From Escherichia coli (lineage in GTDB: Bacteria; Pseudomonadota; Gammaproteobacteria; Enterobacterales; Enterobacteriaceae): a stretch of DNA of 64,000 nt. This document shows, in pieces, positions 35,131-53,830 of the stretch. The stretch lies in the NCBI RefSeq assembly GCF_024502345.1, contig NZ_JALDNN010000001.1; one strand, 5' to 3'. Each line of letters opens with the position of its first letter. Position 1 is the first letter of the stretch. The position numbers were made by a program, and so were the translations under genes. Under the pieces are notes generated by a model that had not been told where the DNA came from, did not search any database, and worked only from the letters and a program-made list of their open reading frames with translations.

Positions 35131-36515
35131 TCAGGCAACCTTTTCAACAGGAATGTCGGCAGTAGCGCGAGTGAGCGTCATCACCGACGCCAGTTTATTC
35201 AGGGTGCTGCCCAGGGTTTGCGGAATGGCGATGGCGGCCACGAAGCGGTCCGGACGCATGACTACCAGCGCGGCGTTGTGCTGGGCAAACCACGCGCGCA
35301 GGCGGTTTTGCGTATCGCCTATGCGGGTAACGCCGTCGTGGTTATCCTGATCGGTATGTATCTGCGTATCCGGCACGACCTGGATAAAACGCGTCCCCAG
35401 CGCCTGCCACTGTTGGATCTGCGCCTCGCTCATGCCCCATAGTGGGTTACAGCCCCAGCCAATCACCGCAAAATTCGGTCCGATGACGTTGTCGAGCAAC
35501 GTCACTTCGCCCGATTCCAGCGTCACCTTCGGCTGGATAAACATCTTGCCGACCGGTGAAGTTTTCGCGTCGCCTTCACGCACCAGCGCCCCGGCGTGGT
35601 ACTGCGGCATCGGCTTAAACCGCATTTCAAGGAAGTAGCGTTTGACCGGCGGAATATAGTTCAACAGCCAGGAAACCCCATCGCGTACCGCGCCGTGCCA
35701 GCGTTTGGGCGGCGCAAGTACGTTGCCAGCGGTCACGGAGAGGTCGATCATCGCTTTGGCGTGGTCGCGGCGTTCCTGCTGGTAGGTATCCAACAGCGCA
35801 TCGTCGGCTTTACCGTTAATCACCAGCGCCAGTTTCCATGCCAGGTTGAAAGCATCGCGCATGCCGCTGTTGTATCCCTGACCCTGCCAGACCGGCATAA
35901 TGTGCGCCGCATCGCCCGCCAGCAGCACGCGGTCAATACGAAAACGTTCGGCCAGACGAGCATTATGGGTATACACGCGCTGGCGGATCAGCTCGACGTT
36001 GTCCGGGTTCGGCAGCACTTTGCTCAGTAACTGGCGCATATTCTGCGGCTCGCTAAGCTGCGCTTCGGTTTCCCCCGGCATAACCATAAACTCAAAACGG
36101 CGCACCGCGTGCGGCAGCGCGGCAGAGACATACGGGCGCACCGGATCGCAGCATAAATACACATGCGGCGTGCTGAGCGGATCGTTGGCGATATCCACCA
36201 CAATCCACTGATTCGGCGCGGTTTTACCTTCAAACGGCACGTTCAGAGAACGTCTGACGTTGCTGCCGCCGCCGTCGCAGGCCACCAGCCACTGAGCCTT
36301 CACCGTTTCACGTTGACCGTCTGGCGCTTTCAGATTTAGCGTCACTTCGCCGTTTTGTTGGCTGAAGGCCTCCAGCTCGCGGGAGAACAGGCAGCGCACG
36401 TTGGGAAAACGCGACAACCCTTCCAACATCACCGCGTCCACCTGCGGCTGAATAAACGCATTACGACGCGACCAGCCAAATTCGTCGGTCATCGGCTGGA
36501 TATCAGCAAAGCAAC
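35131..36515 (-). pseudogene. mhpA: mhpA' second copy, with the 5' end (about 94 codons including the FAD GxGxxG motif) removed at the IS30 junction
   Basis: The frame reads (C)[27 protein letters not shown] and abuts the IS30 end at 36516. Copy 1 has 101 residues before the equivalent Met. Confidence 0.9.
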
Positions 36516-38646
<2,131 letters not shown>

Positions 38647-39905
38647 AACAGTCACCGAACTCGATAATAAAGCGACTCATGGCTATCCGCCAGTCCTGAA
38701 GTGGCATCGTCCATTTCTGTGAGGCTGACTGGATAGCCAGCCTCATCACTTTTTTCACCGATTCATCTATCGGGAACACTTTCCGTTTCTTTATCGCATG
38801 TCTGATGACGCTATTCAGCGATTCGATTGCGTTAGTGGTGTAGATAACCTTGCGGATCGCCTCCGAATACACGAAGAAGGTGGCAACATTCGGCCAGTTT
38901 GCCCGCCAGCTGCGACTTATCTGCGGGTACCGTGCATCCCATTCCTTCCCGAACGCATCCAGCGCCTGCAACGCGCCTTCTTCCGTGGCTGCGCGGTAAA
39001 CCTGTTTCAGGTCACGGGTTACCGCTTTATAGTCTTTCCACGCCAAGAACCGCAGGCTGTTGCGTGCCATGTGTACTATGCACAACTGGATCTGCGTCTC
39101 CGGGTAGACGGCATTAATCGCTTCCGGGAAGCCTTTCAGGCCGTCCACACAGGCGATAAGGATATCGTTCAGCCCGCGATTTTTCAGTTCCGTCAGTACA
39201 TTCAGCCAGAACTTTGCACCTTCATTTTCGGCCAGCCACATACCTGGCAGCTCTTTCTGACCATCAAGGTTAATACCCAGAGCCAGGAACACCGCTCTGT
39301 TGATAACCCGGCTGTCCTGCCGTACTTTCAGGACAATACATTCAAGATAAACAATGGGATAAATCGCATCCAGAGGACGGTTTTGCCATTCTACAACCTG
39401 GTCGATTGCGGCATCGGTGACTTTCGATATCAGCGCCGGAGAGACGTCTGCATCGTACATTTCTTTGAAGACTGAGGTAATTTCGCGGGTAGTCATCCCT
39501 CTGGCATACAGCGCCAGGATCTGGTTGTCCATGCCGGTAATGCGGGTCTGATTTTTCTTCACCAGTTGTGGTTCGAAGGAACCATCACGATCACGTGGAG
39601 TACGTAATTCCATCGGCCCGTCGGTAGTGGTGACGGTTTTCGTGGAATAGCCATTACGGGAGTTGGTTCCCGATTTGGGCTGATTTTTTTCATGTCCCAG
39701 ATGGTGAGTCAGTTCAGCGTTGAGAGCAGCCTCAACACTGATTTTCTTGAGCAGGCGATCGAACTGACTGAGATCTTCAGGGATTTTGAGATTTTTGGCC
39801 AGTTCGTTAGCCAGAGCCTGCAATTGTTTGTCGTCCATAATTTAACCTTCATTTGATGTTGAATTGAACATATCAAAATCAGGCAATTACACAAATATAT
39901 GTACA
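38647..39905 (-). mobile_element. IS256-family (Mutator-type) element, 3'-truncated; the outer end is approximate
   Basis: The minus-strand ORF begins MDDKQLQALANELAKNLKIPEDLSQFDRLLKKISVEAALNAELTHHLGHEK...GYSTKTV...CIVHMARNS. The C-terminus after RFIIEFGD reads into IS911 sequence. An AT-rich leader ends near 39905, where GC content jumps. Confidence 0.75.
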
Positions 39906-40025
39906 GGCTCGCACCTGGGCTTGCCTGACTGACCGCAGGCCGGCGACGACAAGGTGGAAAAGTTCGGCGTGTGGCTCTGGCGGCAACGATCCCGCGAAGG
40001 GCGGACGGTGCTTGAGCTGTTGAAC

Positions 40026-40428
40026 GTAAGCATGCGGGCAAACCATCTTGCGCGACTATGCCGGATGCCACCTATGCGGCAGCAGCTCTGCAATCTCACT
40101 AGCTCGCTGCGTCGGCAACCGTCTCAGCACATCCTTGAGATAGGCATACGGATCGTGCCCATTATTACGGGCCGACTGGATCAAACTCATGATCGCAGCA
40201 GCGCGCTTGAGCATGCGAACCCGCGCCGAGCATTTGAGAAGGCAACGGGATGAACGCTGGCTGGATAGCCGTGGTTTTCTGGGTAAGCAGGCGAATCCAT
40301 TTGTGGACGAGGTTGGCATTGAGGCTGTAGCCCAAGGCGATGTTTGCGATGGAGGCACCGGGTTCAGAACACTCCTGAATGACCTGGGCCTTGAAAGATT
40401 TGCTGTAGGTACGGCGCTGAGGGCGCAT
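40026..40428 (-). mobile_element. IS66-family relic: the start of tnpA fused by deletion to the C-terminal tail of tnpC
   Basis: The minus strand reads MRPQRRTYSKSFKAQVIQECSEPGASIANIALGYSLNANLVHKWI (from 40428), and then ...MSLIQSARNNGHDPYAYLKDVLRRLPTQRASEIAELLPHRWHPA*. GTAAGC, which I recall as the typical IS66 terminus, is at 40026. Confidence 0.65.
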
Positions 40429-40935
40429 GGAAAATCCGCTTGATGGGCCATGGCCTTCGGCGGCGGTGTCGGGAAGGTGTGTTGGCCGGACGGATACTGT
40501 TGAACTACGTTGTCTGGGGCAACGGAAGTGTTTCGGCCCGACTCTGGAACGCGATCCGCAGCGACGACTGGGCAATTCCGCACGTTGGCCTGAGCAGCCT
40601 CGGGGAAATCGTCGTCTGGGCGCGCCCAGACGAGTTTCCGCCAAGGAACATGCAGACAAGCAAGGGGCTGCGGGCACTCGGCTACAACGTGAGGATCGGT
40701 GTTTGATCGAGGCGCCTGTGGCACACGCAGGCTGAGGAGCCAGGCGCTGTCCATTGCCTGATCAGGCCGCCCCCCTGTGCCTTGCCTGAGCAGTTGACCT
40801 GCATCAATGGGGCGGGAGAACGCTGCACATTGCACTCTTGACTCCTGAAGTTTTTCATGGTAAGCCTAATATTACAAAGTATTGCAAGGATTTCCTTGGC
40901 CGGAACCGCAAAGCGACGCGATTGGAGAGGGTGAG

Positions 40936-41217
40936 ATGAAAGCGCACCTACAGGTGATTTTCACGCTCGATGAATTGGCTGCGTACTTGAAAGTCGGCAA
41001 GCGGACGCTTTATCGGCTCGCCGCACACGGGGAAATTCCGGCTTTCAAGGTGGGCGGGACGTGGCGGCTTCGTCAAAGTGAAATCGATCAGTGCATCAAT
41101 GATCAGACCCGAGCCGGAGCAAAGAAGGAGGTGATGCGCAAGCGTGAACAGCAGAAGTCATCCGAGCAGCCCGTGTCGCCTGGGCGCACTGCCCGTCGCA
41201 GCAGGCAAAGGGCTTGA
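40936..41217 (+). CDS. MerR/excisionase-type HTH DNA-binding protein (LHR orf1)
   Basis: The ATG at 40936 follows ggagagggtgag. The protein reads MKAHLQVIFTLDELAAYLKVGKRTLYRLAAHGEIPAFKVGGTWRLRQSEIDQ. Confidence 0.8.
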   Translation: MKAHLQVIFTLDELAAYLKVGKRTLYRLAAHGEIPAFKVGGTWRLRQSEIDQCINDQTRAGAKKEVMRKREQQKSSEQPVSPGRTARRSRQRA

Positions 41218-41251
41218 GTAACTCGTTTTCCAATTTTTCTGGAGGTATGAC

Positions 41252-41821
41252 ATGGACATCGATTTCAAGAAGTTGGCTCCCTGGAACTGGTTCAAGAACG
41301 AGCAGCAAGAGCAGCAGACCGCCTCTTCCCTGCCGGTGCAGCGCAATGACCTGCCAGCGGCGAGCGGGCCAGTCAGCCCGATCCTGCAACTGCGTCGGGA
41401 AATCGACCGGCTGTTCGATGACGCATTCCGGGGCTTCGGTTTTCCGGCGTTGAACATGCCGCAGTGGCCATCCGATTGGTCGGGCATGCTGAAGCCGGCC
41501 CTGGACATCCAGGAAACCGACAAGCAGTACAAGATTGCCCTGGAAGTGCCCGGTGTCGAGGAGAAGGACATCCAGATCACCCTCGACAACGACGTGCTGA
41601 TGGTGCGTGGCGAGAAGCGCCAGGAACAGGAGAAGAAGGAAGGTGGCTTCCACCGTGTGGAGCGCTCCTACGGCAGCTTTCAGCGTGCCTTGAACCTGCC
41701 TGACGACGCCAACCAGGATTCGATCAAGGCATCGTTCAAGAACGGGGTGCTCACGGTCACGATCGACAAGCGCGAGGTCAGCGCGCCGAAGCAGGGACGC
41801 TCGATCCCGATCAACGGCTGA
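41252..41821 (+). CDS. small heat-shock protein, Hsp20/alpha-crystallin family (LHR sHSP20)
   Basis: 189 aa. The alpha-crystallin core reads LDIQETDKQYKIALEVPGVEEKDIQITLDNDVLMVRGEKRQE...FHRVERSYGSFQRALNLPDDA. The RBS is ggagg. Confidence 0.9.
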   Translation: MDIDFKKLAPWNWFKNEQQEQQTASSLPVQRNDLPAASGPVSPILQLRREIDRLFDDAFRGFGFPALNMPQWPSDWSGMLKPALDIQETDKQYKIALEVPGVEEKDIQITLDNDVLMVRGEKRQEQEKKEGGFHRVERSYGSFQRALNLPDDANQDSIKASFKNGVLTVTIDKREVSAPKQGRSIPING

Positions 41822-41926
41822 CGTCGCCGGCTCGTTCGTCACAAGAAAAACCCGTCCCGAGACGAGGTGTCGCGGCTCGCGATGCCTCGTCGCCTCAACC
41901 TTTTCAACCTTCTAAGGAGCATCAGC

Positions 41927-44809
41927 ATGGCCAGAAAACAATGCCAGGTCTGCGGCCAACCCGCCACCGTGCGGGTGGAAGCCAATCTCAACGGTCGTCA
42001 CAGCACCATGCTGTTGTGCGACGACCATTACCGGCAATTAGTGCGCCAGCAAAAGCGCACCGTTTCGCCGCTGGAAGCCTTGTTCGGTTCGCGCAGCGGC
42101 CTGTTCGAGGACTTCCTCGGCAGTGACTTCTTCCGCATCGGCGACGACGCGACGCCAGTTGCCGCCGATACCGATGACGTGGTCGATGCCTCGTTTGGCG
42201 AGCCCGCCGCCGCAGGTTCGGGTGCGCCGCGCCGTCGCGGCAGTGGGCTGGCCAGCCGCATCAGCGAACAGTCGGAAGCCTTGTTGCAGGAGGCCGCCAA
42301 ACACGCTGCCGAATTTGGCCGCTCCGAGGTGGATACCGAACATCTGCTGCTGGCGCTGGCCGACAGCGACGTGGTCAAGACCATCCTGGGTCAGTTCAAG
42401 ATCAAGGTCGATGACCTCAAGCGGCAGATCGAGTCTGAGGCCAAGCGCGGGGACAAGCCCTTCGAGGGCGAGATCGGCGTGTCGCCGCGCGTGAAGGATG
42501 CGCTCAGCCGCGCCTTCGTGGCCTCCAATGAACTCGGTCATTCTTATGTCGGTCCAGAGCATTTCCTGATTGGTCTGGCCGAGGAAGGCGAAGGGCTGGC
42601 CGCCAACCTGCTGCGCCGCTACGGCCTGACGCCGCAGGCGCTGCGCCAACAGGTCAGCAAGGTGGTCGGCAAGGGCGCCGAGGATGGACGCGCTGAGACG
42701 CCGACCAACACGCCCGAGCTGGATAAATACTCGCGCGACCTCACCAAGATGGCGCGCGACGGCAAGCTCGACCCGGTGATCGGCCGCGCGCAGGAGATCG
42801 AAACCACCATCGAGGTGCTGGCCCGGCGCAAGAAGAACAACCCGGTGCTGATCGGCGAGCCGGGTGTGGGCAAGACCGCCATCGTCGAAGGGCTGGCGCA
42901 GCGCATGGTGGCGGGTGAAGTGCCCGAGACCTTGCGCGACAAGCGCCTGGTGGAACTCAACATCAACGCCATGGTGGCCGGCGCCAAATATCGCGGCGAG
43001 TTCGAGGAGCGCGTGCAGAAGGTGCTGAAGGAGGTGACCGAGCACCAGGGCGAGCTGATTTTGTTCATCGACGAGGTGCACACCATCGTCGGTGCCGGCC
43101 AGGGCGGTGGCGAAGGCGGGCTGGACGTGGCCAACGTATTCAAACCGATGATGGCGCGCGGTGAACTCAACCTGATCGGCGCCACGACGCTGAACGAGTA
43201 CCAGAAATACATCGAGAAGGATGCCGCACTGGAGCGGCGCTTCCAGCCGGTGACGGTGCCCGAGCCGACGGTGGCCCAGACCATCATGATTCTGCGCGGC
43301 CTGCGCGACACCTTCGAGGCGCACCACAAGGTCAGCATCTCCGAGGACGCGATCATCGCGGCGGCCGAGTTGTCCGACCGCTACATCACGGCGCGCTTCC
43401 TGCCGGACAAGGCGATCGACCTGCTCGACCAGGCGGCCGCGCGCGTGAAGCTGTCGGCCACGGCCCGGCCGGTGGCCGTGCAGGAGCTGGAGTCCGAACT
43501 GCACCAGCTGCGGCGTGAACAGGATTACGTGGCCGCGCGCAAGCAGTACGACCAGGCCGCCGAGCTCGGCAAGCGCATCGAAGCCAAGGAGACCGAGCTC
43601 AAGAAGCTCGTCGAGAACTGGGAGCGGGAGCGGGCCTCCGGCAGTGCAGAGGTCAAGGCGGAACACGTGGCGCAGATCGTCTCGCGCCTGACCGGCATCC
43701 CTGTCAACGAGTTGACGGTGGAAGAGCGCGAAAAGCTGCTGCACTTGGAACAACGGCTGCACGAGCGCCTGGTGGGACAAGACGAGGCGGTCCGTGCCGT
43801 GGCCGATGCCGTGCGGCTGTCCCGCGCCGGCCTGCGCGAAGGCAGCAAACCGGTGGCTACCTTCCTGTTTCTGGGCCCGACCGGGGTGGGCAAGACCGAG
43901 CTCGCCAAGGCATTGGCCGAATCGATCTACGGCGATGAGCACGCCCTGTTGCGCATCGACATGTCGGAATATGGCGAACGCCATACCGTGGCGCGGCTGG
44001 TGGGCGCGCCTCCGGGCTATGTCGGTTACGACGAAGGCGGTCAGCTCACCGAGAAGGTGCGGCGCAAGCCCTACAGCGTGCTGCTGCTCGACGAGATCGA
44101 GAAGGCACACCCTGACGTCTACAACATCCTGCTGCAAGTGTTCGACGACGGTCGCCTCACCGACGGCAAGGGCCGGGTGGTGGATTTCACCAACACCATC
44201 ATCATCGCCACGTCCAACCTGGGTTCGGACATCATCCAGCGACGGCTGAAGGCGCGTGGGGCGGCCGACGAGGAGTACGAAAAGACCAAGGCCGAGGTCA
44301 TGGACGTGCTGCGCGGCCACTTCCGGCCCGAGTTCCTCAACCGCATCGACGAGATCATCGTCTTCCATGCGCTGGGTAAGGAGGAGATCCGCCACATCGT
44401 CGGCCTGCAGCTCGATCGCGTGGCGCGCAGCGCCGCCAGCCAGGGCGTGACGCTCACTTTCGATCAGACGCTGATCGACCATTTCGCGGAAGAAGGCTAC
44501 AAACCCGAGTTCGGTGCGCGTGAACTCAAGCGCCTGATCCGCAGCGAGCTGGAAACTGCGCTGGCGCGCGAGATGCTCGGTGGCGGCATCGGCAAGGGCG
44601 ATCACGCCAGCGCACGCTGGGACGACAAGGCCGAACGCGTGGTGTTCGAACGCAAAGAGCCACTGCAGACCCCGGCCGAGCCGGAGCAGCCGGATGCCGC
44701 GAAGGCGACCGAGCCGGAGCAGCCGGATGCCGCGAAGGCGACCGAGACGCCGCACGGCGACGCTGGCAAAGGCTCGCGCAAGAAGAAGTCGGCGAGCGAC
44801 GCATCTTGA
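41927..44809 (+). CDS. clpK: ClpB-like AAA+ disaggregase ClpK (ClpG-GI)
   Basis: The ATG at 41927 follows aaggag. It has an N-terminal Cys-rich extension ([15 protein letters not shown]...[10 protein letters not shown]), two Clp_N repeats, two Walker A sites (GEPGVGKT and GPTGVGKT), and two Walker B sites (LFIDEVH and [10 protein letters not shown]). Length is 960 aa. Confidence 0.92.
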
Positions 44810-45000
44810 TGGCGGGCGAGGCTGCCGTGTCCGACCCCAAGGGCCTGGCATGGGCAGCCTCCCTGGCCTCGATCGCGGTGGCGTTCGTGGCCGCGGGTCA
44901 CGCGGTCGTCTACAAGCGTGATCCGCGGTCGACCACGCCGTGGGGGCTGCTCATCAGCGGCGGCACTGCCCTCCCGCTCGCTGGCCATCCGTTTGCGTGA
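44809..45000 (+). CDS. small hydrophobic protein (LHR orf4), possibly the N-terminal remnant of a cardiolipin-synthase-like gene
   Basis: Its ATG overlaps the clpK TGA (TGATG). The protein [49 protein letters not shown] resembles the first TM helix plus the KRDPR segment of Cls-type proteins as I recall them. Confidence 0.4.
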   Translation: MAGEAAVSDPKGLAWAASLASIAVAFVAAGHAVVYKRDPRSTTPWGLLISGGTALPLAGHPFA

Positions 45001-45060
45001 CGGTGCGGCCCGTCTGTTCACCTGATCCTCTGGCAACTCGACTTTCGAGGAACACAGCCC

Positions 45061-46788
45061 ATGGAAAAAAAGAATCAATGGAATACCGGCTACTGGATCG
45101 TTGCCCTCCTGCTGTTGTTGAGTTTGCAGAGCTACTGGCAGACGGCGAAAACCGTCGAGCCGGTGCCCTACAGCGAGTTCGAGAAGGCGCTGGCCGAGGG
45201 GCGCGTGGCCGAAGTGCTGGTGTCGGATCGTACGGTGACCGGGCGCCTGAAGTCGCCGGACAGCCGGGGCAAGACGACGATCGTGGCAACGAGGGTCGAA
45301 CCCGATCTTGCCGATCGCCTGTCGAAGTACGACGTGCCCTATGCCCGCGTGTTGGAGAGCACCTGGCTGCGCGATGTGCTGTCGTGGATCCTGCCAGCGG
45401 TAGCCTTCTTTGGCGTCTGGTTCTTCCTGTTCCGCCGCTTCGCCGAGAAGCAGGGCATGGGCGGGTTTCTCAACATCGGTAAGAGCCGCGCCAAGGTGTT
45501 CGTGGAAAAGAACACCGGTGTGACGTTCGCCGATGTCGCGGGGGGGGATGAGGCCAAGGCGGAGCTGGTCGAGATCGTCGATTTCCTGAAGAATCCGCAG
45601 GACTATGGCCGTCTCGGGGCGCGCATTCCCAAGGGCGTGTTGCTGGTCGGCCCACCGGGCACCGGCAAGACATTGCTGGCCAAGGCTGTTGTCGGCGAGG
45701 CGGCGGTGCCCTTCTTCTCCATCTCCGGATCAGAGTTTGTCGAGATGTTCGTCGGCGTGGGTGCGGGCCGCACGCGCGGCGTCGGCGGCCACGACGAGAG
45801 CGAGCAGACCCTCAACCAACTGCTCACGGAGATGGACGGCTTCGACAGCTCGGTCGGGCTGATCATCCTCGCCGCCACCAACCGCCCCGAAATCCTCGAC
45901 CAGGCTCTGCTGCGTGCCGGCCGCTTCGACCGCCAGGTGCTGGTGGACCGGCCCGACAAGAAGGGGCGGCTGGACATCCTGAAGGTTCATGTCAAGAAGG
46001 TGACGCTGGCCCAGGATGTAGACCTCGAACAGGTAGCAGCACTGACCACGGGCTTTTCCGGCGCGGACCTCGCCAATAGGGTCAACAAGGCGGCGCTGGC
46101 GGCGAGGAGACGCCGTGCGTCCGCCGTGGAATTGCAGGACTTCACCGCGACCATCGAGCGCATCGTGGCGGGCCTGGAAAAGAAGAGCCGCGTGCTCAAT
46201 CCCAAGGAGCGGGAAACCGTGGCCCATCACGAGATGGGCCATGCGCTGGTGGCGCTGGCGCTGCCCGAAACCGACCCCGTACACAAGATCTCGATCATCC
46301 CGCGCGGCATCGGCGCGCTGGGCTACACCTTGCAGCGCCCCACCGAAGACCGCTTCCTGATGACGCGTACCGATCTCGAGCACAAGATCGCCGTACTGCT
46401 GGGCGGGCGTGCCGCCGAAAAGCTGGTGTTCGGCGAGTTGTCTACCGGGGCGGCGGACGATCTGGCGCGAGCCACCGACATCGCCCGCGACATGATCACC
46501 CGCTTTGGCATGGACGAGGGCCTGGGCTACATCGCCTTCGAGGCGCAGCGGCCCCGCTTTCTCGATACACCGGAACTGGCCCACGGCGGTTGCCGGGTGG
46601 CCGAATCGACCCAGGCGCGCATCGATCAGGCTATCCGCGACATCGTGATGGGCGTGTTCGAGCGCGCCTACCGGATTCTCGACATCTACCGCGCGGTGCT
46701 GGAGCGCTGCGCGCGCGAGCTGCTGGCGCGGGAAGCGCTCGACGAAAGCGATATCCGTCAATTGACTCAAGGACTTGTTCGGAACTGA
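45061..46788 (+). CDS. ftsH: FtsH-like membrane AAA+ zinc metalloprotease with the Walker B segment missing
   Basis: 575 aa. It has two N-terminal TM segments, Walker A GPPGTGKT, the second region of homology [22 protein letters not shown], and the zinc motif HEMGHAL. Between FVGVGA and GGHDE there are only 7 residues (GRTRGVG). Confidence 0.85.
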
Positions 46789-46875
46789 AAACAGTAGTAG
46801 GTGCCATTCAGAGTAAACCGACGGCTCTGTTCAGTGCGTCATCCAATTCGTCGGCATTGTTCAAGGAGAACCGAT

Positions 46876-47334
46876 ATGTCTGCATTGACTCCGTGGGACC
46901 CCTTCCGGGAACTGGATGAATTGCAAAACCGCCTGGCGACGATGTTCGGACGAATACCCCAGCGACAGGGCGCCCGTACCGGCAACGAAGCCATGACCAC
47001 GGCGGACTGGGCACCAATGGCGGACATCAGCGAGGATGAGAACGCATTCCTCCTCAAGCTGGATCTGCCGGAGGTCCCCAAGGATGCCGTGCGCGTCAGC
47101 GCGGAAAACGGTGTGCTCACCATCAGCGGCGAGCGCAAACTGGAAAAAGAGGAGCAGGGCAAGAAGTTCCACCGCATCGAACGTGCGTATGGCCGCTTTG
47201 TGCGCAGCTTTGTCTTGCCTGACAACGTTGATCCGACCAAGGTGACGGCTTCCATGAAAGACGGCGTACTGGAAGTGCGGCTTGTCAAGGCCGAGCAAGC
47301 CAAACCGAAACAGATTGAAATCTCAGTCAACTAA
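46876..47334 (+). CDS. small heat-shock protein, Hsp20 family (LHR sHSP-GI)
   Basis: The ATG at 46876 follows aaggaga. The protein reads MSALTPWDPFRELDELQNRLATMFGR...ADISEDENAFLLKLDLPEVPKDAVRVSAENGVLTISGERK (152 aa). Confidence 0.9.
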   Translation: MSALTPWDPFRELDELQNRLATMFGRIPQRQGARTGNEAMTTADWAPMADISEDENAFLLKLDLPEVPKDAVRVSAENGVLTISGERKLEKEEQGKKFHRIERAYGRFVRSFVLPDNVDPTKVTASMKDGVLEVRLVKAEQAKPKQIEISVN

Positions 47335-47356
47335 CTTCAATCAGGAGCCCAAGATC

Positions 47357-48271
47357 ATGAATATCAAACAGCCACAATACACCTTCTCCGCACTTGCCCT
47401 GGCGGTCGTCGTCGGACTGAGCGGACCGGCTCTGGCCCAATCGGCGGCAGGTTCTAGCCCAGGTGCTGCAGCCCCCTCTGCCGCATCCAAGGCGGCACAG
47501 CCACAAGTAGATGACAAGGCCGCCCGGGAAGCCGATAAAAAGCGTGCCGAGCTCACTCAAGACGCCATCACGGCGCTCACCAAGACCCAGGAGGCTTTGA
47601 CCCTCCTTGATGCAAAGAAGACCAAGGAGGCGCTTGCTGCGCTGGAACTGGCCAGCGGAAAGCTGGAACTGGTATTGGCACGTGACGCCAAACTTGCTTT
47701 GGCGCCGGTCGATGTACGCGTCATCACCCACGATATCCACGCCAACGTGGAATCGGTAAAGAAAGCGGTCAAGTTGTCTCGGGAGTTGTTGGGTGATGGC
47801 GAGGTGCAAAAGGCCCGGCCCATCGTTGCCAATCTGGCCAGCGAAATCGTAATCCAAACCGACAACCTTCCGATGGCAACGTACCCGGCAGCGATCAAGT
47901 CGGCCGCACGGCTCATCGACAGCGGCAAGATCGACAACGCCAAAGCGGAACTCGCCCGAGCACTGAACACGCTGGTGGTGACCTCGGTCGCCTTTCCTCT
48001 GCCCGTGCTACGGGCCGAAGCCGCGATGGCAAAAGCTGAAAAGCTGGCCGAGACCGACAGGCGCGATGCCAAGCAGAACGAGGAGCTCAGCACCTTGCTG
48101 TCGTCCGTGCGCACGGAGATCGAGATGGCGCAGATCCTGGGTTATGGCAAGAAGGCGGACTTCAAACCCATTTTCGATCAGGTGAAGTCCATTGAGCAAA
48201 AGTCGGCTGGTGGCAAAAGCGGCAAGGGATGGTTCGACGAGTTGAAGACGCGCATCCAAAAGCTGTTTTGA
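47357..48271 (+). CDS. yfdX1: YfdX-family periplasmic protein 1
   Basis: The ATG at 47357 follows aggag. It has a signal peptide, MNIKQPQYTFSALALAVVVGLSGPALAQ, and is a paralogue of the next gene (shared ...LELVLARD...V.QAR....LASEIVI...P.A.YP.A.K). Confidence 0.85.
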   Translation: MNIKQPQYTFSALALAVVVGLSGPALAQSAAGSSPGAAAPSAASKAAQPQVDDKAAREADKKRAELTQDAITALTKTQEALTLLDAKKTKEALAALELASGKLELVLARDAKLALAPVDVRVITHDIHANVESVKKAVKLSRELLGDGEVQKARPIVANLASEIVIQTDNLPMATYPAAIKSAARLIDSGKIDNAKAELARALNTLVVTSVAFPLPVLRAEAAMAKAEKLAETDRRDAKQNEELSTLLSSVRTEIEMAQILGYGKKADFKPIFDQVKSIEQKSAGGKSGKGWFDELKTRIQKLF

Positions 48272-48373
48272 GGTGATGAAGGGGCTGACTGCTCTGTCGG
48301 TCAGTCTCGCGATGTTCGCATTCAGCCCCAACAGATTCGCCTATTTTCACTATCTCATACGAGGCATATCACC

Positions 48374-49261
48374 ATGAATGAGCAAACACCGAATCCCAAT
48401 GCGACGAACGAAGGAATAAACGAACAAGCCGCGGTAAGCAGCCTTCCTGTCAGTCCAGAGTCCAAGCCTGAAGTCGTCACGGAGGTACAGCCTGAGGTTC
48501 AGAAAGAAACGGACTCGCAGGCGGCAGACAAACGTAAACAAGTCCTCGATGAGGCAGTCTCGGCCTTGTCGCTGACCAAATCAGCGCTGGCCGCACTTGA
48601 CGGCAAGGACACTGCACGCGCATTGGCAACGCTGGCCGAAGTGACGGGAAAGCTGGAGCTGATCGTCGCGCGCGAACCCACGCTCGCCCTGGCCGGCGTT
48701 GATGTGCGCACCATCGTGCACGACTTGTTCGCCAACACGGAAACCATTGAGGCGATGACCGACGAGGCGCTGGATGCCCTCAAACATGGCGAGGTGCAAC
48801 AGGCTCGCCACGTGCTGGCTTTGCTGGCCAGTGAAATCGTGATCACGGTCACCAACATCCCTTTGGCGTCCTATCCCGCAGCCGTGAAGGCAGTCGTGCC
48901 GCTGATCGATCAGGGCAAGATCGAAGAAGCCAAAGCCGCGCTGCAGTCAGCGCTCAGCACGCTGGTCGAGGAGCGCAGCGTGCTTCCGCTGCCCGTCCTG
49001 CGTGCGAAGCTGCTCCTGAAGCGCGCCGAGCCTCTGGTAGAAGATGGTCAGCGCAGCGAAGCATCCAATGAGCGCCTGGAGACATTGTTGAACGAAGCCC
49101 GGCAGCAGTTGGAAATGGCAGAACTGCTGGGCTATGGAAAAAGGAAGGACTTTGAGCCCCTGTACGCTGAACTCAAGAAAATCAAGGAAAAGACGGGAGG
49201 GGGAGGCTTCGGAAAAGGCTGGCTCGATGAAGTCAAGGCAAAACTGTCCAGGTTGTTCTGA
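48374..49261 (+). CDS. yfdX2: YfdX-family protein 2, with no signal peptide in this frame
   Basis: 295 aa. It is homologous to YfdX1 over the C-terminal ~230 aa. The N-terminus MNEQTPNPNATNEGINEQAAV is hydrophilic. Confidence 0.8.
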   Translation: MNEQTPNPNATNEGINEQAAVSSLPVSPESKPEVVTEVQPEVQKETDSQAADKRKQVLDEAVSALSLTKSALAALDGKDTARALATLAEVTGKLELIVAREPTLALAGVDVRTIVHDLFANTETIEAMTDEALDALKHGEVQQARHVLALLASEIVITVTNIPLASYPAAVKAVVPLIDQGKIEEAKAALQSALSTLVEERSVLPLPVLRAKLLLKRAEPLVEDGQRSEASNERLETLLNEARQQLEMAELLGYGKRKDFEPLYAELKKIKEKTGGGGFGKGWLDEVKAKLSRLF

Positions 49262-49269
49262 AACCGCTG

Positions 49270-49330
49270 GAGAGGGGGCGCATAGTGCCCCCTCTCTTGT
49301 CCCATGAGTGTTTGATTTTTTATTTTGTAT
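49270..49330 (+). terminator. Rho-independent terminator candidate after yfdX2
   Basis: A 10-bp stem (gagagggggc / gccccctctc) with a 7-nt loop, followed about 20 nt later by tttgattttttatttt. Confidence 0.55.
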
Positions 49331-49350
49331 AGATCTTTAGGAGATATTGC

Positions 49351-49962
49351 ATGAACACAGACACCATCACCGATTCCAGTGCGGATGACCCCACCAAAGC
49401 ACTGTGTTCGCTTAGCCAAAATTGGTGGCTTTTTGTGCTGCGCGGTGTCTTGGCATTGATTTTTGCAGCCCTCGCGTTCTGGATGCCACAATCGGCTCTG
49501 TTGGCCATGACCATCATGTTCGGCGCATTTTCCTTGGTCAATGGCGCGTTCAACTTGTTTGCAGCGGTGCGCCATATCCAGAAAAAAGAGCGCTGGGGCT
49601 GGTTGTTGTTCAGCGGCATTGTCGGCATACTTACGGGCGTCGTCGTCCTGGTTGCTCCTTGGGTCGCCACGATAGTCTTGGCTTCTTTTTTATGGGCTAG
49701 CGTGGGCTTCTGGGCGATTTTCACCGGTGTGCTGGAGATATCTGCCGCCGTTCGGCTGCGTCGGGAAATCAAGGGTGAAATCTGGCTTGCCCTCAGTGGA
49801 CTGCTCTCGATTATCCTTGGTGCTATCGTCTTGTGGATATTTTTTACCCGTCCGGTCGAGTCATTCGTGGCCGCAGGCTGGCTGTTGGGTTTCCATGCGG
49901 CAGTCTATGGCGTCACGCTTTTGTTCTTGAGTTGGAGTCTTCGCAAAACGCGCCTGGGGTAA
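49351..49962 (+). CDS. hdeD: HdeD-like acid-resistance membrane protein
   Basis: 203 aa with about six hydrophobic helices. The protein reads WWLFVLRGVLALIFAALAFWMPQSALLAMTIMFGAFSLVNGAFNL. Confidence 0.8.
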   Translation: MNTDTITDSSADDPTKALCSLSQNWWLFVLRGVLALIFAALAFWMPQSALLAMTIMFGAFSLVNGAFNLFAAVRHIQKKERWGWLLFSGIVGILTGVVVLVAPWVATIVLASFLWASVGFWAIFTGVLEISAAVRLRREIKGEIWLALSGLLSIILGAIVLWIFFTRPVESFVAAGWLLGFHAAVYGVTLLFLSWSLRKTRLG

Positions 49963-50041
49963 GAGCGTGCCAAACCAAAATCTATGGATATGAGCATCCT
50001 CGATTCATGCCTCCATAGAAATGACATCGAAGGAGTCATAC

Positions 50042-51187
50042 ATGCAGATACAATATAGCTATCGAGCTATCGACAAAGAGTTTCATGAACCTTGGCAGAG
50101 AGCTTTGGGAAATGTGATCGAGCACGCCCTCAAGCCATTGCTCGACAAACACACTAAAGATTCAGCGCGACTTCAAATCGTCCTTGATCGCGACAAGATC
50201 AAGCGGCAATTTCTGGCCAGTGGCTATATGCACCTGCCCGGCAAAAAGATTGTCAGCGTTACTGCATCACATGACGAGCTGACGCCCCTCGCGCAGATGC
50301 TCGCACAGTCGTTGTTCCGTCAGGCCAAGAAGCATTTTGACCGACTGCATGCTCAGGATCAAATCAAGCGCAAAGCACGACGCGAGCGCTTGCGCGAGCT
50401 CAAGGTGCGGATTGCCGCAAAACCCGCATCAGCCGCCCATGAGGCCGAGGTGACCCGAATGCCTCTACTGTCGAAACTTGAGGCTGTCGCAAGGCGTGAG
50501 CTGGCTTATCTGCGGGCCGTCGGCGATTTACCGCGCGATTATCCGACGCTGCGCGACGTGGTGGATGAAGCGATTGTCCGAGCTAAGGTGGAATGGCAAT
50601 CCGTGCCGGGGGAAAAAGAGGCTTACACCGGTCTTTTGAAGCATCTGTTCGCCGTCCTGGATAACGAAGTGGCAAGCAGCCGGCAATTTGGCGAATTCGT
50701 TTCTCTGGACGCGCCGGTCGAACCGGATGCCCAAGACGTGGCCGAGGCCATGGTGGAAGAGGAAATCTTCGAATTTTATCAGCACGATGACACACTCAAG
50801 CTGGCCGATATTTTCGCTGGCAGTCAGCATCCCGATGTCGCAACGATCGCGGAACAGGAGGAGCTGATTGATCGGTCGAGCGAGTTCGCTTTTGCATTTG
50901 ACCTGCTGAAGGACATGCCGCGTTTGTGGCGGCGCATTTTTCTGCTTATCCGTGTGGACGGGCTGAATGCCAGCAGCGTCTCTGAAATCCTGCTGATTCC
51001 TAGTAAGGAAGATGCTGTCCAAAGGTGGCTCATGCAGGCCGAAGCATTCATCGCTGCTCATCTGGAAGAGGCCGGAGTAAGCAAAAACGGGAACGATTGG
51101 CTCCAAGGCGTTGATTGGCCGGCATTGTCTGTGACCCGAAGCGAGGCAGCCTCACTGTGGTCCAAGGAGGCGAACCATGAAGAATGA
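50042..51187 (+). CDS. uncharacterised LHR orf11, with an HPF-like N-terminal region and a sigma-70-like C-terminal region (by eye)
   Basis: The ATG at 50042 follows aaggag. It is 381 aa and its stop overlaps the trx start. See the findings for the domain argument. Confidence 0.6.
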   Translation: MQIQYSYRAIDKEFHEPWQRALGNVIEHALKPLLDKHTKDSARLQIVLDRDKIKRQFLASGYMHLPGKKIVSVTASHDELTPLAQMLAQSLFRQAKKHFDRLHAQDQIKRKARRERLRELKVRIAAKPASAAHEAEVTRMPLLSKLEAVARRELAYLRAVGDLPRDYPTLRDVVDEAIVRAKVEWQSVPGEKEAYTGLLKHLFAVLDNEVASSRQFGEFVSLDAPVEPDAQDVAEAMVEEEIFEFYQHDDTLKLADIFAGSQHPDVATIAEQEELIDRSSEFAFAFDLLKDMPRLWRRIFLLIRVDGLNASSVSEILLIPSKEDAVQRWLMQAEAFIAAHLEEAGVSKNGNDWLQGVDWPALSVTRSEAASLWSKEANHEE

Positions 51188-51617
51188 TCTTCACCTCGTC
51201 TGCCCGCATTGCCAGTCCATCAACCGCGTACCGACTGCGAAGCTATCGGAACATCCCAACTGTGGCCGCTGCCAGCAGCCCTTGTTCACGGGCGAGCCCA
51301 TCGAGTTGACCACGGCGACGTTCTCGCGCCACGTGGAGCGCAGCGATCTGCCGCTGCTGGTCGATTTCTGGGCGCCATGGTGCGGGCCGTGCAAGATGAT
51401 GGCGCCACAGTTCCAGCAAGCGGCGCACCAGCTCGAACCGACGATCCGGCTGGCGAAGGTGAATACCGAGGCTGAGCCCCACCTGGCCGCGCAGTTCGGT
51501 ATCCGCAGCATCCCGACGCTCGCCCTGTTCCAGGGTGGGCGGGAGATCGCCCGTCAGGCCGGCGTGATGGGCGCGCAGGACATCGTGCGCTGGACGTCGA
51601 CGCAAGTGGGACGCTGA
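51177..51617 (+). CDS. trx: thioredoxin 2-like protein (N-terminal zinc-finger CxxC pairs plus WCGPC)
   Basis: The protein reads MKNDLHLVCPHCQSINRVPTAKLSEHPNCGRCQQPLF...FWAPWCGPCKMMAP (146 aa). Confidence 0.9.
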   Translation: MKNDLHLVCPHCQSINRVPTAKLSEHPNCGRCQQPLFTGEPIELTTATFSRHVERSDLPLLVDFWAPWCGPCKMMAPQFQQAAHQLEPTIRLAKVNTEAEPHLAAQFGIRSIPTLALFQGGREIARQAGVMGAQDIVRWTSTQVGR

Positions 51618-51620
51618 CCG

Positions 51621-53336
51621 ATGCAGGGCTTGCTCGGCACTACGCTAATCCTGCTGGCGGCTTGCAGCCTGGCGGCGATGGCGACGGCGGCGTTCAGAGT
51701 GCCCGCCTTGCTGGGGTATCTCTCTGTCGGCGTTGTACTGGGCCCCTCAGTCATCGGCGTGATCGCGCCGGGGGAGACGCTGAGCTTTCTGTCCGAGCTG
51801 GGCGTGGCGCTGCTGTTGTTCATGGTCGGACTGGAATTCTCCCTCGGAGACTTCTGGCTCGCCCGCAGGACGGTGCTGATGGCGGGCGCTCTGCAGATGA
51901 TCGCCGTGGCCCCGCCGCTGATCCTGCTATTGATGTGGCTGGGGCAGCCCGGCCAGAGCGCCGCGCTGCTCGGCACTGCGGCGGCCATGTCGTCCACGGC
52001 GCTGGTCAGCCGACAACTGGCCGACCAAGGCGAGCTCACCACCCGCCACGGACGCAGTGCCATCGCCGTGCTGGTCTTTCAGGACCTGGCCAGCGTGCCC
52101 CTGCTGGCCTTGCTGGCGATCTGGGCGCGCGGCGACTCGCCGAAGATCGAGCATGTGCTGCTCGAAGTATTCGGTGTGCTGCTGCTGTTCGCGGCAGCGG
52201 CCCTCGCCTCGCGCCGTCTGTTGCATGGCCTGCTGGGCTGGGTGGCGCGGCGGGGCCACGAGGAATCGTTCGTGCTCGTCTCCTTGTGCGTGGTGGTGGC
52301 CGCCGCCGCCGCTGCGCACGCGGTCGGCGTATCTGCCGCCCTGGGGGCCTTCCTCGCCGGGATGGTGCTGGGCGAGAGCGACTTCCGGCACCACATGGAA
52401 AGCCACCTCAGGCCGTTTCGCGATGTGTTGTCGGGCGTGTTCTTCGTGACCATCGGCCTGCAACTGGACGCAGCACAGATTCTTTCGGCACCGCTGGCGG
52501 TGCTGGCGTGGCTGGTGGTGCTGGTACCGGTCAAGATCCTGCTCAATACACTGGCCTTGCGGGCGACGCGCCTGTCCGCCCTCGATGCCTGGCGCACGGG
52601 CATAGCGTTGGGGCACGGCGGCGAGTTCGCCCTGCTGTTGTTGGGCACGGTCTTGCAGCAGCATCTGATCCCCGCGACCGTCGTCCAACCCATGCTGGTC
52701 GCGCTGGTGCTCAGCATGGCCCTGGCACCGCTACTGATCCGCCATCACGATGTACTTGCCCGGTTCTTGAGCCGCACCGGCGGCGTCATTCAGCCACCCC
52801 AGGCTGAAGAAGTCGAGATCGCCGCGCAGACGACGCGATATCGAGACCATGTCATCATTTGCGGCGCGGGCGAGCTTGGCCTGACAGTCAGCGAGATTCT
52901 TCGCCACGCCGGCGTGGCGCATCTGCTGCTGGAGGCGGACGCGCAGAAGGTCGAGGCCGCGCGTGCCGCCGGCGCGCCGGTGTTCCATGCCGATGCCAGT
53001 CGGCCCGATACCTTGCTGGCTGCCGGCTTGACGCATGCACACTTGGTGGTGCTGACGTTCGCCCATGCCCAGCAAGCGTTGCGCATCGCCCAGGCGATTG
53101 CCGAGCACCGTCCGGCGCTGACCTTGTGGGTGTCATGCAGAAGTACGACCGCGGCCGATGCATTTCGCGCCATGCCCAACGTGCGCGTGTATCAGCAATC
53201 CTTTGCCGCAGCTATTGGGCTGGCGGAACAGGTGATGTCGACGCTTGGCATGTCGACCGAGCTGATTGAAGGACACATCAGCGCAATGCGCCGCCGTCTC
53301 GACAGCAGCCGTTTTCCAGGGAGTTCATCGTCATGA
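51621..53336 (+). CDS. kefB: KefB/KefC-type monovalent cation:proton antiporter with a C-terminal TrkA-N (Rossmann) domain
   Basis: 571 aa. The polytopic N-terminal two-thirds is followed by VIICGAGELGLTVSEILRHAG. Confidence 0.85.
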   Translation: MQGLLGTTLILLAACSLAAMATAAFRVPALLGYLSVGVVLGPSVIGVIAPGETLSFLSELGVALLLFMVGLEFSLGDFWLARRTVLMAGALQMIAVAPPLILLLMWLGQPGQSAALLGTAAAMSSTALVSRQLADQGELTTRHGRSAIAVLVFQDLASVPLLALLAIWARGDSPKIEHVLLEVFGVLLLFAAAALASRRLLHGLLGWVARRGHEESFVLVSLCVVVAAAAAAHAVGVSAALGAFLAGMVLGESDFRHHMESHLRPFRDVLSGVFFVTIGLQLDAAQILSAPLAVLAWLVVLVPVKILLNTLALRATRLSALDAWRTGIALGHGGEFALLLLGTVLQQHLIPATVVQPMLVALVLSMALAPLLIRHHDVLARFLSRTGGVIQPPQAEEVEIAAQTTRYRDHVIICGAGELGLTVSEILRHAGVAHLLLEADAQKVEAARAAGAPVFHADASRPDTLLAAGLTHAHLVVLTFAHAQQALRIAQAIAEHRPALTLWVSCRSTTAADAFRAMPNVRVYQQSFAAAIGLAEQVMSTLGMSTELIEGHISAMRRRLDSSRFPGSSSS

Positions 53337-53830
53337 AATCAACACGCCTTAACCCATTTCAGGTCTTACGTGACCAATTGGCCATCATGAGTTTTTACGA
53401 GCGCTTCGAGCAGGTCGTCGCGCTCGTGCTGTCGGCGGTGATCGCCGTCATCATCGTGGTGTCGCTGTTCCAGCTCATCTCCATCGTCTTCACGCTGCTG
53501 GTTCTAGATGCCTTCAATCCCCTGGACCACGAGGTATTCCAGAGCGTGTTCGGCATGATCATGACGCTCTTGATCGCGATGGAGTTCAAGCATTCCATCG
53601 TGCGCGTGGCGCTGCGTCGGGACAGCATCATCCAGGTCAAGACGGTGGTCCTGATCGCGCTGATCGCACTCTCCCGCAAGTTCGTGATCCTCGACTCCAA
53701 CGCGAGCCCCGCAAAGATAGCCGCGCTGGCTAGCGCCACGCTGGCTCTGGGTGCGACCTACTGGCTGCTGCGCAAGCGCGGCGACCGCGCCGCCGAGACC
53801 TCTGAGCATGACCCGTCATCATCCCAGTGA
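53333..53830 (+). CDS. psiE: PsiE-like phosphate-starvation-inducible membrane protein
   Basis: 165 aa with four hydrophobic segments. Its ATG overlaps the kefB stop (ATGA). Confidence 0.7.
   Translation: MKSTRLNPFQVLRDQLAIMSFYERFEQVVALVLSAVIAVIIVVSLFQLISIVFTLLVLDAFNPLDHEVFQSVFGMIMTLLIAMEFKHSIVRVALRRDSIIQVKTVVLIALIALSRKFVILDSNASPAKIAALASATLALGATYWLLRKRGDRAAETSEHDPSSSQ

Follow-up and report, generated by a model that had tools for sequence, protein, structure and literature searches.

Probable repeat-mediated loss of the Walker B segment from FtsH-GI of the Escherichia coli heat-resistance island tLST1 points to a decaying gene

What becomes of an FtsH protease gene that loses its Walker B box and keeps its reading frame? 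This question is raised by an open reading frame (ORF) for a 575-residue protein in a stretch of 64,000 nucleotides of Escherichia coli DNA (assembly GCF_024502345.1, contig NZ_JALDNN010000001.1), which we refer to as the window. The ORF is ftsH-GI, the FtsH gene of a heat-resistance island that is tLST1, also known as LHR1. An earlier reading of the letters of this DNA, here called the sequence-only reading, had proposed that the encoded protein lacks about 28 codons, including Walker B, and that the product is a substrate trap, an adaptor or the relic of a decaying gene. The comparisons described below confirm the in-frame loss and make it probable that the window carries a non-functional, decaying ftsH-GI allele that was made by repeat-mediated slippage.

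The extent of the loss was determined against intact relatives. In the nearest intact copies and in 80 species-level homologs taken from GTDB representatives (53-97% identity), the interval between the GVGA and GGHDE motifs is about 36 residues long and includes IIFIDELD. Compared with the FtsH of the tLST2/LHR2 plasmid copy (L002, 609 aa) and those of Tepidicella (L005) and a member of the Comamonadaceae (L006), 30 codons (90 nt) are absent from the window gene, while the count is 27 against the Klebsiella copy and 26 against intact alleles that already lack the residues GPIG. The predicted loss was therefore real, and its size depends on the reference. When the whole window protein was searched with the regular expression [ILVMFAC]{3,4}D[DE], zero matches were obtained, as against exactly one (IIFIDE) in the intact copy. 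Indeed, the Walker B box was present and ungapped in all 80 homologs and in LHR2 (81/81 relatives). The deletion covers 12 of the 101 columns that are strictly invariant across the 80 homologs. With the Pfam AAA profile, the score dropped from 149.7 to 96.3 bits and the match was split in two, leaving profile positions ~49-75 unmatched. Likewise, TIGR01241 matched the window protein in two stretches (664.5 bits, skipping profile positions ~240-268) and the intact copy in one (779 bits). The window protein passes the curated equivalog cut-off of this model, 600 bits, which says nothing on activity. Because its score is still above 600, annotation pipelines keep calling it an FtsH-family protein.

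The other hallmarks of the family were all found in the window protein: the membrane anchor, Walker A, the pore loop, sensor-1 and the second region of homology, the M41 domain and the hidden Markov model score. Of the features looked for, Walker B was the one that was missing. The membrane anchor includes the periplasmic FtsH_ext domain (PF06480 at residues 11-94, 43.4 bits). The M41 profile PF01434 was matched over positions 1-191 of 191 with 194 bits, and the GAADD motif, which provides the third zinc ligand, aligns to GAAND of Thermotoga maritima. That Walker A, the arginine-finger region and the HEMGH site had escaped the deletion was thus seen correctly from the sequence. An intact ortholog at the same island position (WP_021567664) shares 94% amino acid identity outside the gap and is alike in its transmembrane/periplasmic region, Walker A, pore loop, second region of homology and HEMGH. 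The core FtsH (HflB) of E. coli and the solved structures (T. maritima 2CE7/7TDO, E. coli 7VHP) have the same domain architecture at 44% identity. However, core FtsH reads RVRD...IIFIDEID...GRQRGAGLG, phmmer splits the window protein in two around that segment, and every one of the solved structures contains the part that is missing here.

In AAA+ proteins, the acidic pair of Walker B lies at the end of an inner strand of the nucleotide-binding sheet, and point mutants of the Walker B glutamate become substrate traps with their fold preserved. By the established AAA+ topology, the missing part of the window protein would comprise the helix that follows pore loop 1, the Walker B strand (IIFIDELD) in its entirety and part of the next loop. 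Without the Asp/Glu pair and an inner strand, AAA+ biochemistry leads one to expect no ATP hydrolysis, and the AAA module would probably not fold normally. Substrates would then be neither unfolded nor translocated into the still-intact M41 chamber, and the product would contribute nothing to the heat resistance of the island, which would rest on ClpK, the small heat-shock proteins, and the envelope and oxidative modules. We consider the FtsH product of the window most probably inactive and possibly unstable. Engineered Glu-to-Gln traps would, by analogy, be like the window allele in that Walker A is kept and hydrolysis abolished. They retain a complete fold and lose one carboxylate, however, whereas the window allele would, by the AAA+ topology, lack a strand and the preceding helix, and does not qualify as a trap. 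A protein that binds ATP without hydrolysing it and thereby holds substrates is accordingly an unlikely outcome, since 26-30 residues including the 12 invariant columns are gone, further invariants have been replaced and descendants are frameshifted. A role as an adaptor appears unlikely on the same grounds, with the strand, the preceding helix and part of the loop removed, and of the three proposed fates it is the decaying gene that fits the evidence. A different partial loss is known from the chloroplast FtsHi pseudo-proteases, which have kept the ATPase, have lost the zinc site and are conserved under selection. Both are FtsH-family proteins with one of two activities lost, but the window protein would have lost the ATPase, keeps the zinc site and appears to be decaying.

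Conceivably, the gap could be an artefact of sequencing or assembly, or a mutation private to one strain, as the region is GC-rich, repetitive and prone to slips of assemblers and polymerases. We give this virtually no credence, because the identical junction recurs on more than 1000 contigs and in ~99 complete E. coli records, which come from many laboratories and platforms, and the exact protein recurs in independent NCBI assemblies. With hundreds of independent assemblies in agreement, the suggested inspection of the read pile-up is no longer needed. Many complete E. coli chromosomes gave one unbroken, gap-free match to the 1728-bp allele at 99.8%, and 99 records with at least 99% identity were found among the 142 records (124/5426 genomes) that carry any ftsH-GI. 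One recorded E. coli protein (P0001) is the same as that of the window. Relative to the dominant variant (P0011, on at least 1000 contigs), the window protein carries the changes E343K, N543Y and T559A, and the two E. coli alleles differ at three nucleotides, each of them non-synonymous. The intact tLST2 ftsH was found in 29 E. coli records, mostly plasmids. The gap, for which an alignment had been suggested to see whether it was strain-specific, is not so: the Walker-B-deleted form is the standard allele of the chromosomal tLST1 of E. coli.

The DNA at the junction indicates how the segment may have been lost. Intact genes carry the sequences GCG GCC CGY GTG CGC G and CTG GGC CGC GCG CGC G, which form an 11/14 imperfect direct repeat with copies 78 nt apart. 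The window reads GGT GCG / GGC CGC ACG CGC GGC GTC GGC GGC CAC, where the slash marks the junction of a 78-nt deletion between positions 45765 and 45766, and the right-hand copy of the repeat is kept with one G>A change. The earlier proposal of a deletion between short GC-rich repeats (ARVR/GRAR) was thus broadly right, with a second loss, of 12 nt between TCGGCGGCC repeats, to be added. This 12-nt loss, which removes GPIG, is found alone in many Walker-B-intact alleles (Enterobacter, Yersinia and others). A single 90-nt event was therefore rejected, and the window allele is best understood as a 78-nt deletion superimposed on that background. In the sequence of events that we propose, ftsH-GI would have lost selective constraint within the tLST1 lineage that reached the Enterobacteriaceae. 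In the chromosomal branch of E. coli, the imperfect direct repeats 78 nt apart would have slipped or misaligned during replication, on a background already without the 12 nt between the two TCGGCGGCC repeats, and the outcome would be the in-frame excision of 26 (+4) codons. That the ORF is still open is owed solely to the youth of the allele and to a deletion length divisible by three. A hairpin was also considered, as a 20-nt, 75% inverted repeat brackets 82 nt including Walker B in the intact tLST1-type sequence. Excision through this hairpin was dropped in favour of direct-repeat slippage, since folding of the single-stranded DNA was no better than that of shuffled sequences (z = +1.07 and +0.41). 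The helix and loop that flank Walker B are a hotspot of in-frame indels in their own right: the 9-nt unit TGCGCGACC (RDL), just 5′ of the stretch for the Walker B strand, occurs once or is repeated in tandem two or three times in otherwise intact tLST1-like alleles (L093:3712-3729; proteins P0182, P0232, P0196 and P0210), and the 12-nt GPIG indel is polymorphic as well.

The Walker B segment has also been removed from other copies of the gene. In the E. coli strains H6 and AH21, a 90-nt loss left the junction GCG GCC CGT GTG CGC GGC ATC GGC GGC CAC, in which the left copy of the repeat is kept. This haplotype has no derived substitution in common with the window type and shows a 9-nt deletion at 1281, as in the Walker-B-intact allele of strain EA7. 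A common origin of the H6 and window deletions was rejected, as their junctions differ at 6/24 nt and no derived sites are in common. In Raoultella terrigena NCTC9997, 105 nt were lost in frame between the copies of a 27-nt imperfect repeat that are spaced exactly 105 nt apart. Judged from these junctions, the Walker B segment has been excised independently at least twice besides the window type, in the H6 type and in Raoultella. A separate lineage that contains cls, on plasmids of Klebsiella and Citrobacter, has lost 11 nt out of frame at the same GC-rich spot, as well as 515 nt at the 3′ end. The example from the K. pneumoniae plasmid OW848880 (L086:2500-3810), with relatives in K. quasipneumoniae and Citrobacter, shows 88% identity to the LHR2 ftsH and is annotated as two FtsH fragments.

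The commonest form of the gene on Klebsiella and Enterobacter plasmids, which is also that of E. coli AW1.7, has suffered an out-of-frame deletion of ~990 nt between GTTGCCGG repeats that leaves a 228-aa stump. It was found in 36/60 evenly sampled plasmid rows (46% query coverage), and 180/264 matching records fall in the same 80-90% identity band. This remnant (orf5/orf6 of LHR1), dominant on IncF plasmids of Klebsiella and Enterobacter, resembles the window allele in gene, context and repeat-mediated loss of Walker B. In contrast to the AW1.7 deletion, which amounts to 901 nt relative to the window allele, the window allele keeps its frame and the whole protease domain, and pipelines therefore annotate it as an intact protein. 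The Walker B box falls within each of the four medium or large deletions that were seen among the tLST1-type alleles examined. The idea that the frame is kept to spare hsp20-GI and yfdX from polarity was rejected, because an out-of-frame gene is the commonest tLST1 form in Klebsiella and Enterobacter and is also that of AW1.7, and the island with it is still highly protective.

A further weak spot was identified in VAGGDEAK, the motif that the sequence-only reading had singled out as odd. The unusual residue is real, as none of 81 homologs has a glycine at the column of G162, but what had been missed is that its codons form part of a G8 homopolymer. LHR2 and Tepidicella have GCTGGCGTCGAT (GCT GGC GTC GAT) at this site. 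In a comparison that drew on the window and the loci L088, L089, L093 and L096, G7 variants were frameshifted in E. roggenkampii, K. variicola and E. coli EA7, and a G9 variant was frameshifted in E. coli C NCTC122, with six more records showing the same 1721-nt match span. These frameshifts identify the tract as a slippage hotspot. E. coli C carries a frameshifted descendant of the window-type allele, and the annotation pipeline PGAP marks 2/2 inspected RefSeq E. coli records (EA7 and NCTC122) as frameshifted. AH21, a descendant of the H6 type, is frameshifted as well. Further events in tLST1-type ftsH comprise insertions of 7, 24 and 6 nt, a 9-nt deletion of FEQ and the variation of the 9-nt RDL unit between 1 and 3 copies. 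Moreover, full-length tLST1-like alleles have between one and four replacements at columns that are invariant in the 80 homologs (D158Y, A207T, P190T, F218C and R308S are examples). LHR2 has zero such replacements, and the leave-one-out median of the homologs is 0.

The window lineage itself keeps gaining damaging substitutions, and some of its descendants are frameshifted. The order of changes is the deletion and L340R first, then A211V and R247S, and last E343K, N543Y and T559A. L340R (46078-46080) is a double change, CTG>AGG, common to all window-type alleles including the basal STK77 variant. The oddities noted earlier in conserved positions were indeed real: R340 replaces L/I/V of the homologs, and K343 stands in place of a glutamate that is otherwise invariant. 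For 5/6 substitutions of the window lineage the derived residue is absent from the 80 homologs, and two lie at invariant columns. Across the tLST1-type lineages, four of 19 recent replacements fall at invariant columns, which agrees with the neutral expectation of 16.6%, as compared with 0/26 on the older tLST2-tLST1 divergence (Fisher p=0.026). The ratio of non-synonymous to synonymous rates (dN/dS) for ftsH was 0.08 against LHR2 and 0.59-0.79 among tLST1 copies, where counts are small and dS is ~0.02; for clpK it was 0.08-0.20. Across the long divergence between tLST2 and tLST1, ftsH was under strong purifying selection.

Several observations weigh against decay. When substitutions were polarised on the same short branches, the ratio of non-synonymous to synonymous changes was 18:11 for ftsH and 29:31 for clpK, hsp20-GI and yfdX1/2, a difference that was not significant (p=0.26). 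Relaxed selection is consequently deduced mainly from the sites affected and the independent lesions, not from rates. In addition, the ORF is open in the window, where a GAGGAA Shine-Dalgarno sequence ~8 nt 5′ of the ATG provides a plausible ribosome-binding site, and in most E. coli copies; there is no inactivating change in the protease domain; and three independent in-frame removals of one segment could mean selection for an expressed, ATPase-dead protein. Such a protein would be made, inserted into the membrane and assembled into hexamers through its transmembrane and M41 parts, alone or with the host FtsH, and would serve as a dominant-negative modulator (for example, one that stabilises sigma-32), as a holdase or substrate trap, or as an adaptor. 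Its intact protease domain and Walker A, the wide distribution of the open ORF with its Shine-Dalgarno sequence, the repeated in-frame removals (at least three) and the hetero-oligomers of FtsH-GI and core FtsH in P. aeruginosa (PMC6629908) are all compatible with this idea. However, a whole strand and helix are gone rather than one catalytic side chain, which makes a trap-competent fold doubtful, and the later changes A211V, L340R and E343K struck invariants of the AAA module. Descendants were then frameshifted, at the G tract in the E. coli C group and in AH21 of the H6 type. The commonest tLST1 form in Klebsiella and Enterobacter is the out-of-frame stump, which is also found in AW1.7, the reference strain for heat resistance. 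Strains with a functional ftsH-GI and strains that lack one are similarly heat-resistant, and the poisoning of an essential host FtsH would be costly. We therefore regard a working ATPase-dead subunit as very unlikely. We see an equally slim chance that the recurrent excision in the window, H6 and Raoultella types was selected for a natural 'poison subunit' or pseudo-ATPase, which would co-assemble with host FtsH and damp its activity, with sigma-32 raised or LpxC turnover altered, for example, as part of the stress phenotype of the island.

A non-functional, decaying gene thus remains the preferred explanation, and the question is whether its decay was neutral or favoured. Inactivation would have been positively selected if an intact FtsH-GI were harmful in Enterobacteriaceae, through mis-degraded host substrates or aberrant mixed hexamers. 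The product would still be non-functional, and this alternative differs from slippage in a gene free of constraint only in the cause of the decay. Supporting it, ftsH-GI has been inactivated many times independently in an island that is young (dS ~0.02) and in which 13/13 other checked genes are intact, and the four medium or large deletions all took the Walker B box. On the other hand, alleles of intact length are still found in Yersinia, Enterobacter and Citrobacter and on tLST2 plasmids of E. coli, the intact P0232 being present on 157 contigs and the LHR2 type in the 29 E. coli records mentioned above. Mutational bias would also suffice, given breakpoints on direct repeats and a separate 11-nt deletion at the same spot, and each lineage has roughly as many lesions as neutral indel rates would yield at such divergence, by our own estimate only. 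Selected loss is in our judgement somewhat unlikely, and we keep both neutral and favoured decay in consideration.

Previous work on the island is in line with a dispensable gene. According to a 2021 review of tLST, FtsH-GI has not been shown to add to stress tolerance in E. coli, and strains with tLST2 (functional ftsH-GI) and tLST1 ('truncated' ftsH) have comparable heat resistance (PMC8290217). The FAM21845 genome paper calls the 575-aa type simply 'FtsH' and reports the 901-bp ftsH deletion in AW1.7 (PMC5514686), and a 2025 survey defines tLST1a/b and tLST2a-d by their ftsH deletions (PMC12603250). The ortholog of P. aeruginosa, with intact Walker A and B, forms hetero-oligomers with core FtsH (PMC6629908). 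It is an active protease, from which the window copy differs by 30 missing codons and replaced invariant sites. A literature search for an explicit report of Walker B loss in tLST1 FtsH found none, the matches to 'Walker B' being author names or ClpG. It was already known, then, that the ftsH of tLST1 is truncated and dispensable for heat resistance; the Walker B detail, the recurrent excision and the G8 tract are incremental additions. They carry a caveat for annotation, as RefSeq/PGAP and the tLST literature list the 575-aa product as an FtsH-family metalloprotease, which, by its sequence, should be unable to act as an ATP-dependent protease. The dominant E. coli variant (WP_000412528.1, 3 aa different from the window protein) is named by PGAP 'ATP-dependent metallopeptidase FtsH/Yme1/Tma family protein' and is not marked as a pseudogene. 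Models of E. coli tLST1 should not count FtsH-GI as an active component of protein homeostasis. The window-, H6-, Raoultella- and AW1.7-type junctions, together with G-tract length, could serve as lineage markers in tLST typing. The gene would also offer a natural example of how repeat-mediated in-frame deletions and homopolymer slippage wear down one dispensable member of an operon that spreads horizontally and is conserved in its other parts.

The features of the gene and its neighbours are listed in Table 1.

Table 1. Positions of ftsH-GI, its motifs, lesions and substitutions, and the neighbouring genes in the window
Feature	Position	Strand	Remark
ftsH-GI, Walker-B-deleted 575-aa allele, FtsH xenolog of tLST1/LHR1	45061..46788	+	open ORF, 1728 bp
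G8 homopolymer coding AGGD of VAGGDEAK	45540..45547	+	specific to tLST1-type ftsH
Walker A GPPGTGKT	45649..45672	+	intact, aa 197-204
A211V	45691..45693	+	column Ala in 80/80 homologs
Pore loop 1, MFVG	45745..45756	+	intact, directly abutting the deletion, aa 229-232
Retained linker GRTRGV (ggc cgc acg cgc ggc gtc)	45766..45783	+	right-hand copy of the imperfect repeat (GRAR in intact genes), one G>A
Single remaining copy of the 9-nt TCGGCGGCC repeat	45782..45790	+	two perfect copies 12 nt apart in intact LHR2-type genes
R247S in HDEREQ	45799..45801	+	K/R in 80/80 homologs
Sensor-1 / second region of homology (Arg fingers)	45874..45933	+	intact, aa 272-291
Stretch with L340R and E343K	46072..46098	+	E343 invariant in 80/80 homologs; E343K private to the window sublineage
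HEMGH zinc site of the M41 protease domain	46228..46242	+	intact, aa 390-394
clpK/clpG-GI disaggregase	41927..44809	+	upstream neighbour
N-terminal remnant of cardiolipin synthase (cls/orfA of tLST2)	44809..45000	+	63-codon ORF
hsp20-GI	46876..47334	+	downstream neighbour

The assignment of the island follows from its context. Positions 38334-56781 of the window match, colinearly and at 99.7%, the heat-resistance island in the chromosome of E. coli ECONIH4, an island that comprises hsp20, clpK, ftsH, hsp20-GI, yfdX1/2, hdeD-GI, trx-GI, kefB-GI, psiE-GI, htpX and degP. The GC content of the island is 62-65%, as against 52-56% in the flanks. The gene order clpK - [cls] - ftsH - hsp20-GI - yfdX1/2 is the same in the compared islands (L001-L004), which places the window gene by synteny in the same ortholog group. 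At the DNA level, the window ftsH shares 98.5% identity with the Klebsiella copy and 90.8% with that of LHR2. The genes found intact beside it run from hsp20 through degP. Among chromosomal relatives, those nearest to the tLST2 FtsH of E. coli come from the hot-spring betaproteobacterium Tepidicella baoligensis (97% aa) and from a metagenome-assembled genome of the Comamonadaceae (96% aa), and the sequence relationships fit a thermophilic Burkholderiales origin of the island.

Some minor observations concern the vicinity of ftsH-GI. The 'hypothetical' ORF between clpK and ftsH starts within an overlap with the clpK stop codon and corresponds to the gene cls/orfA that is intact in tLST2; this stump indicates that the interval from clpK to hsp20-GI is eroding as a whole. 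Close to its 3′ end, clpK contains a perfect tandem duplication of 33 bp (44678-44743) that is single-copy in the clpK of the Klebsiella plasmid (L001) and accounts for a ClpK of 960 aa versus 949 aa. Upstream of the island, positions 35483-38333 hold a fragment of mhpA (35483-36515) and fragments of insertion sequences (IS) and transposases, and this flank matches that of ECONIH4 only piecemeal, from which it appears that the insertion context varies among strains in IS and group II intron content.

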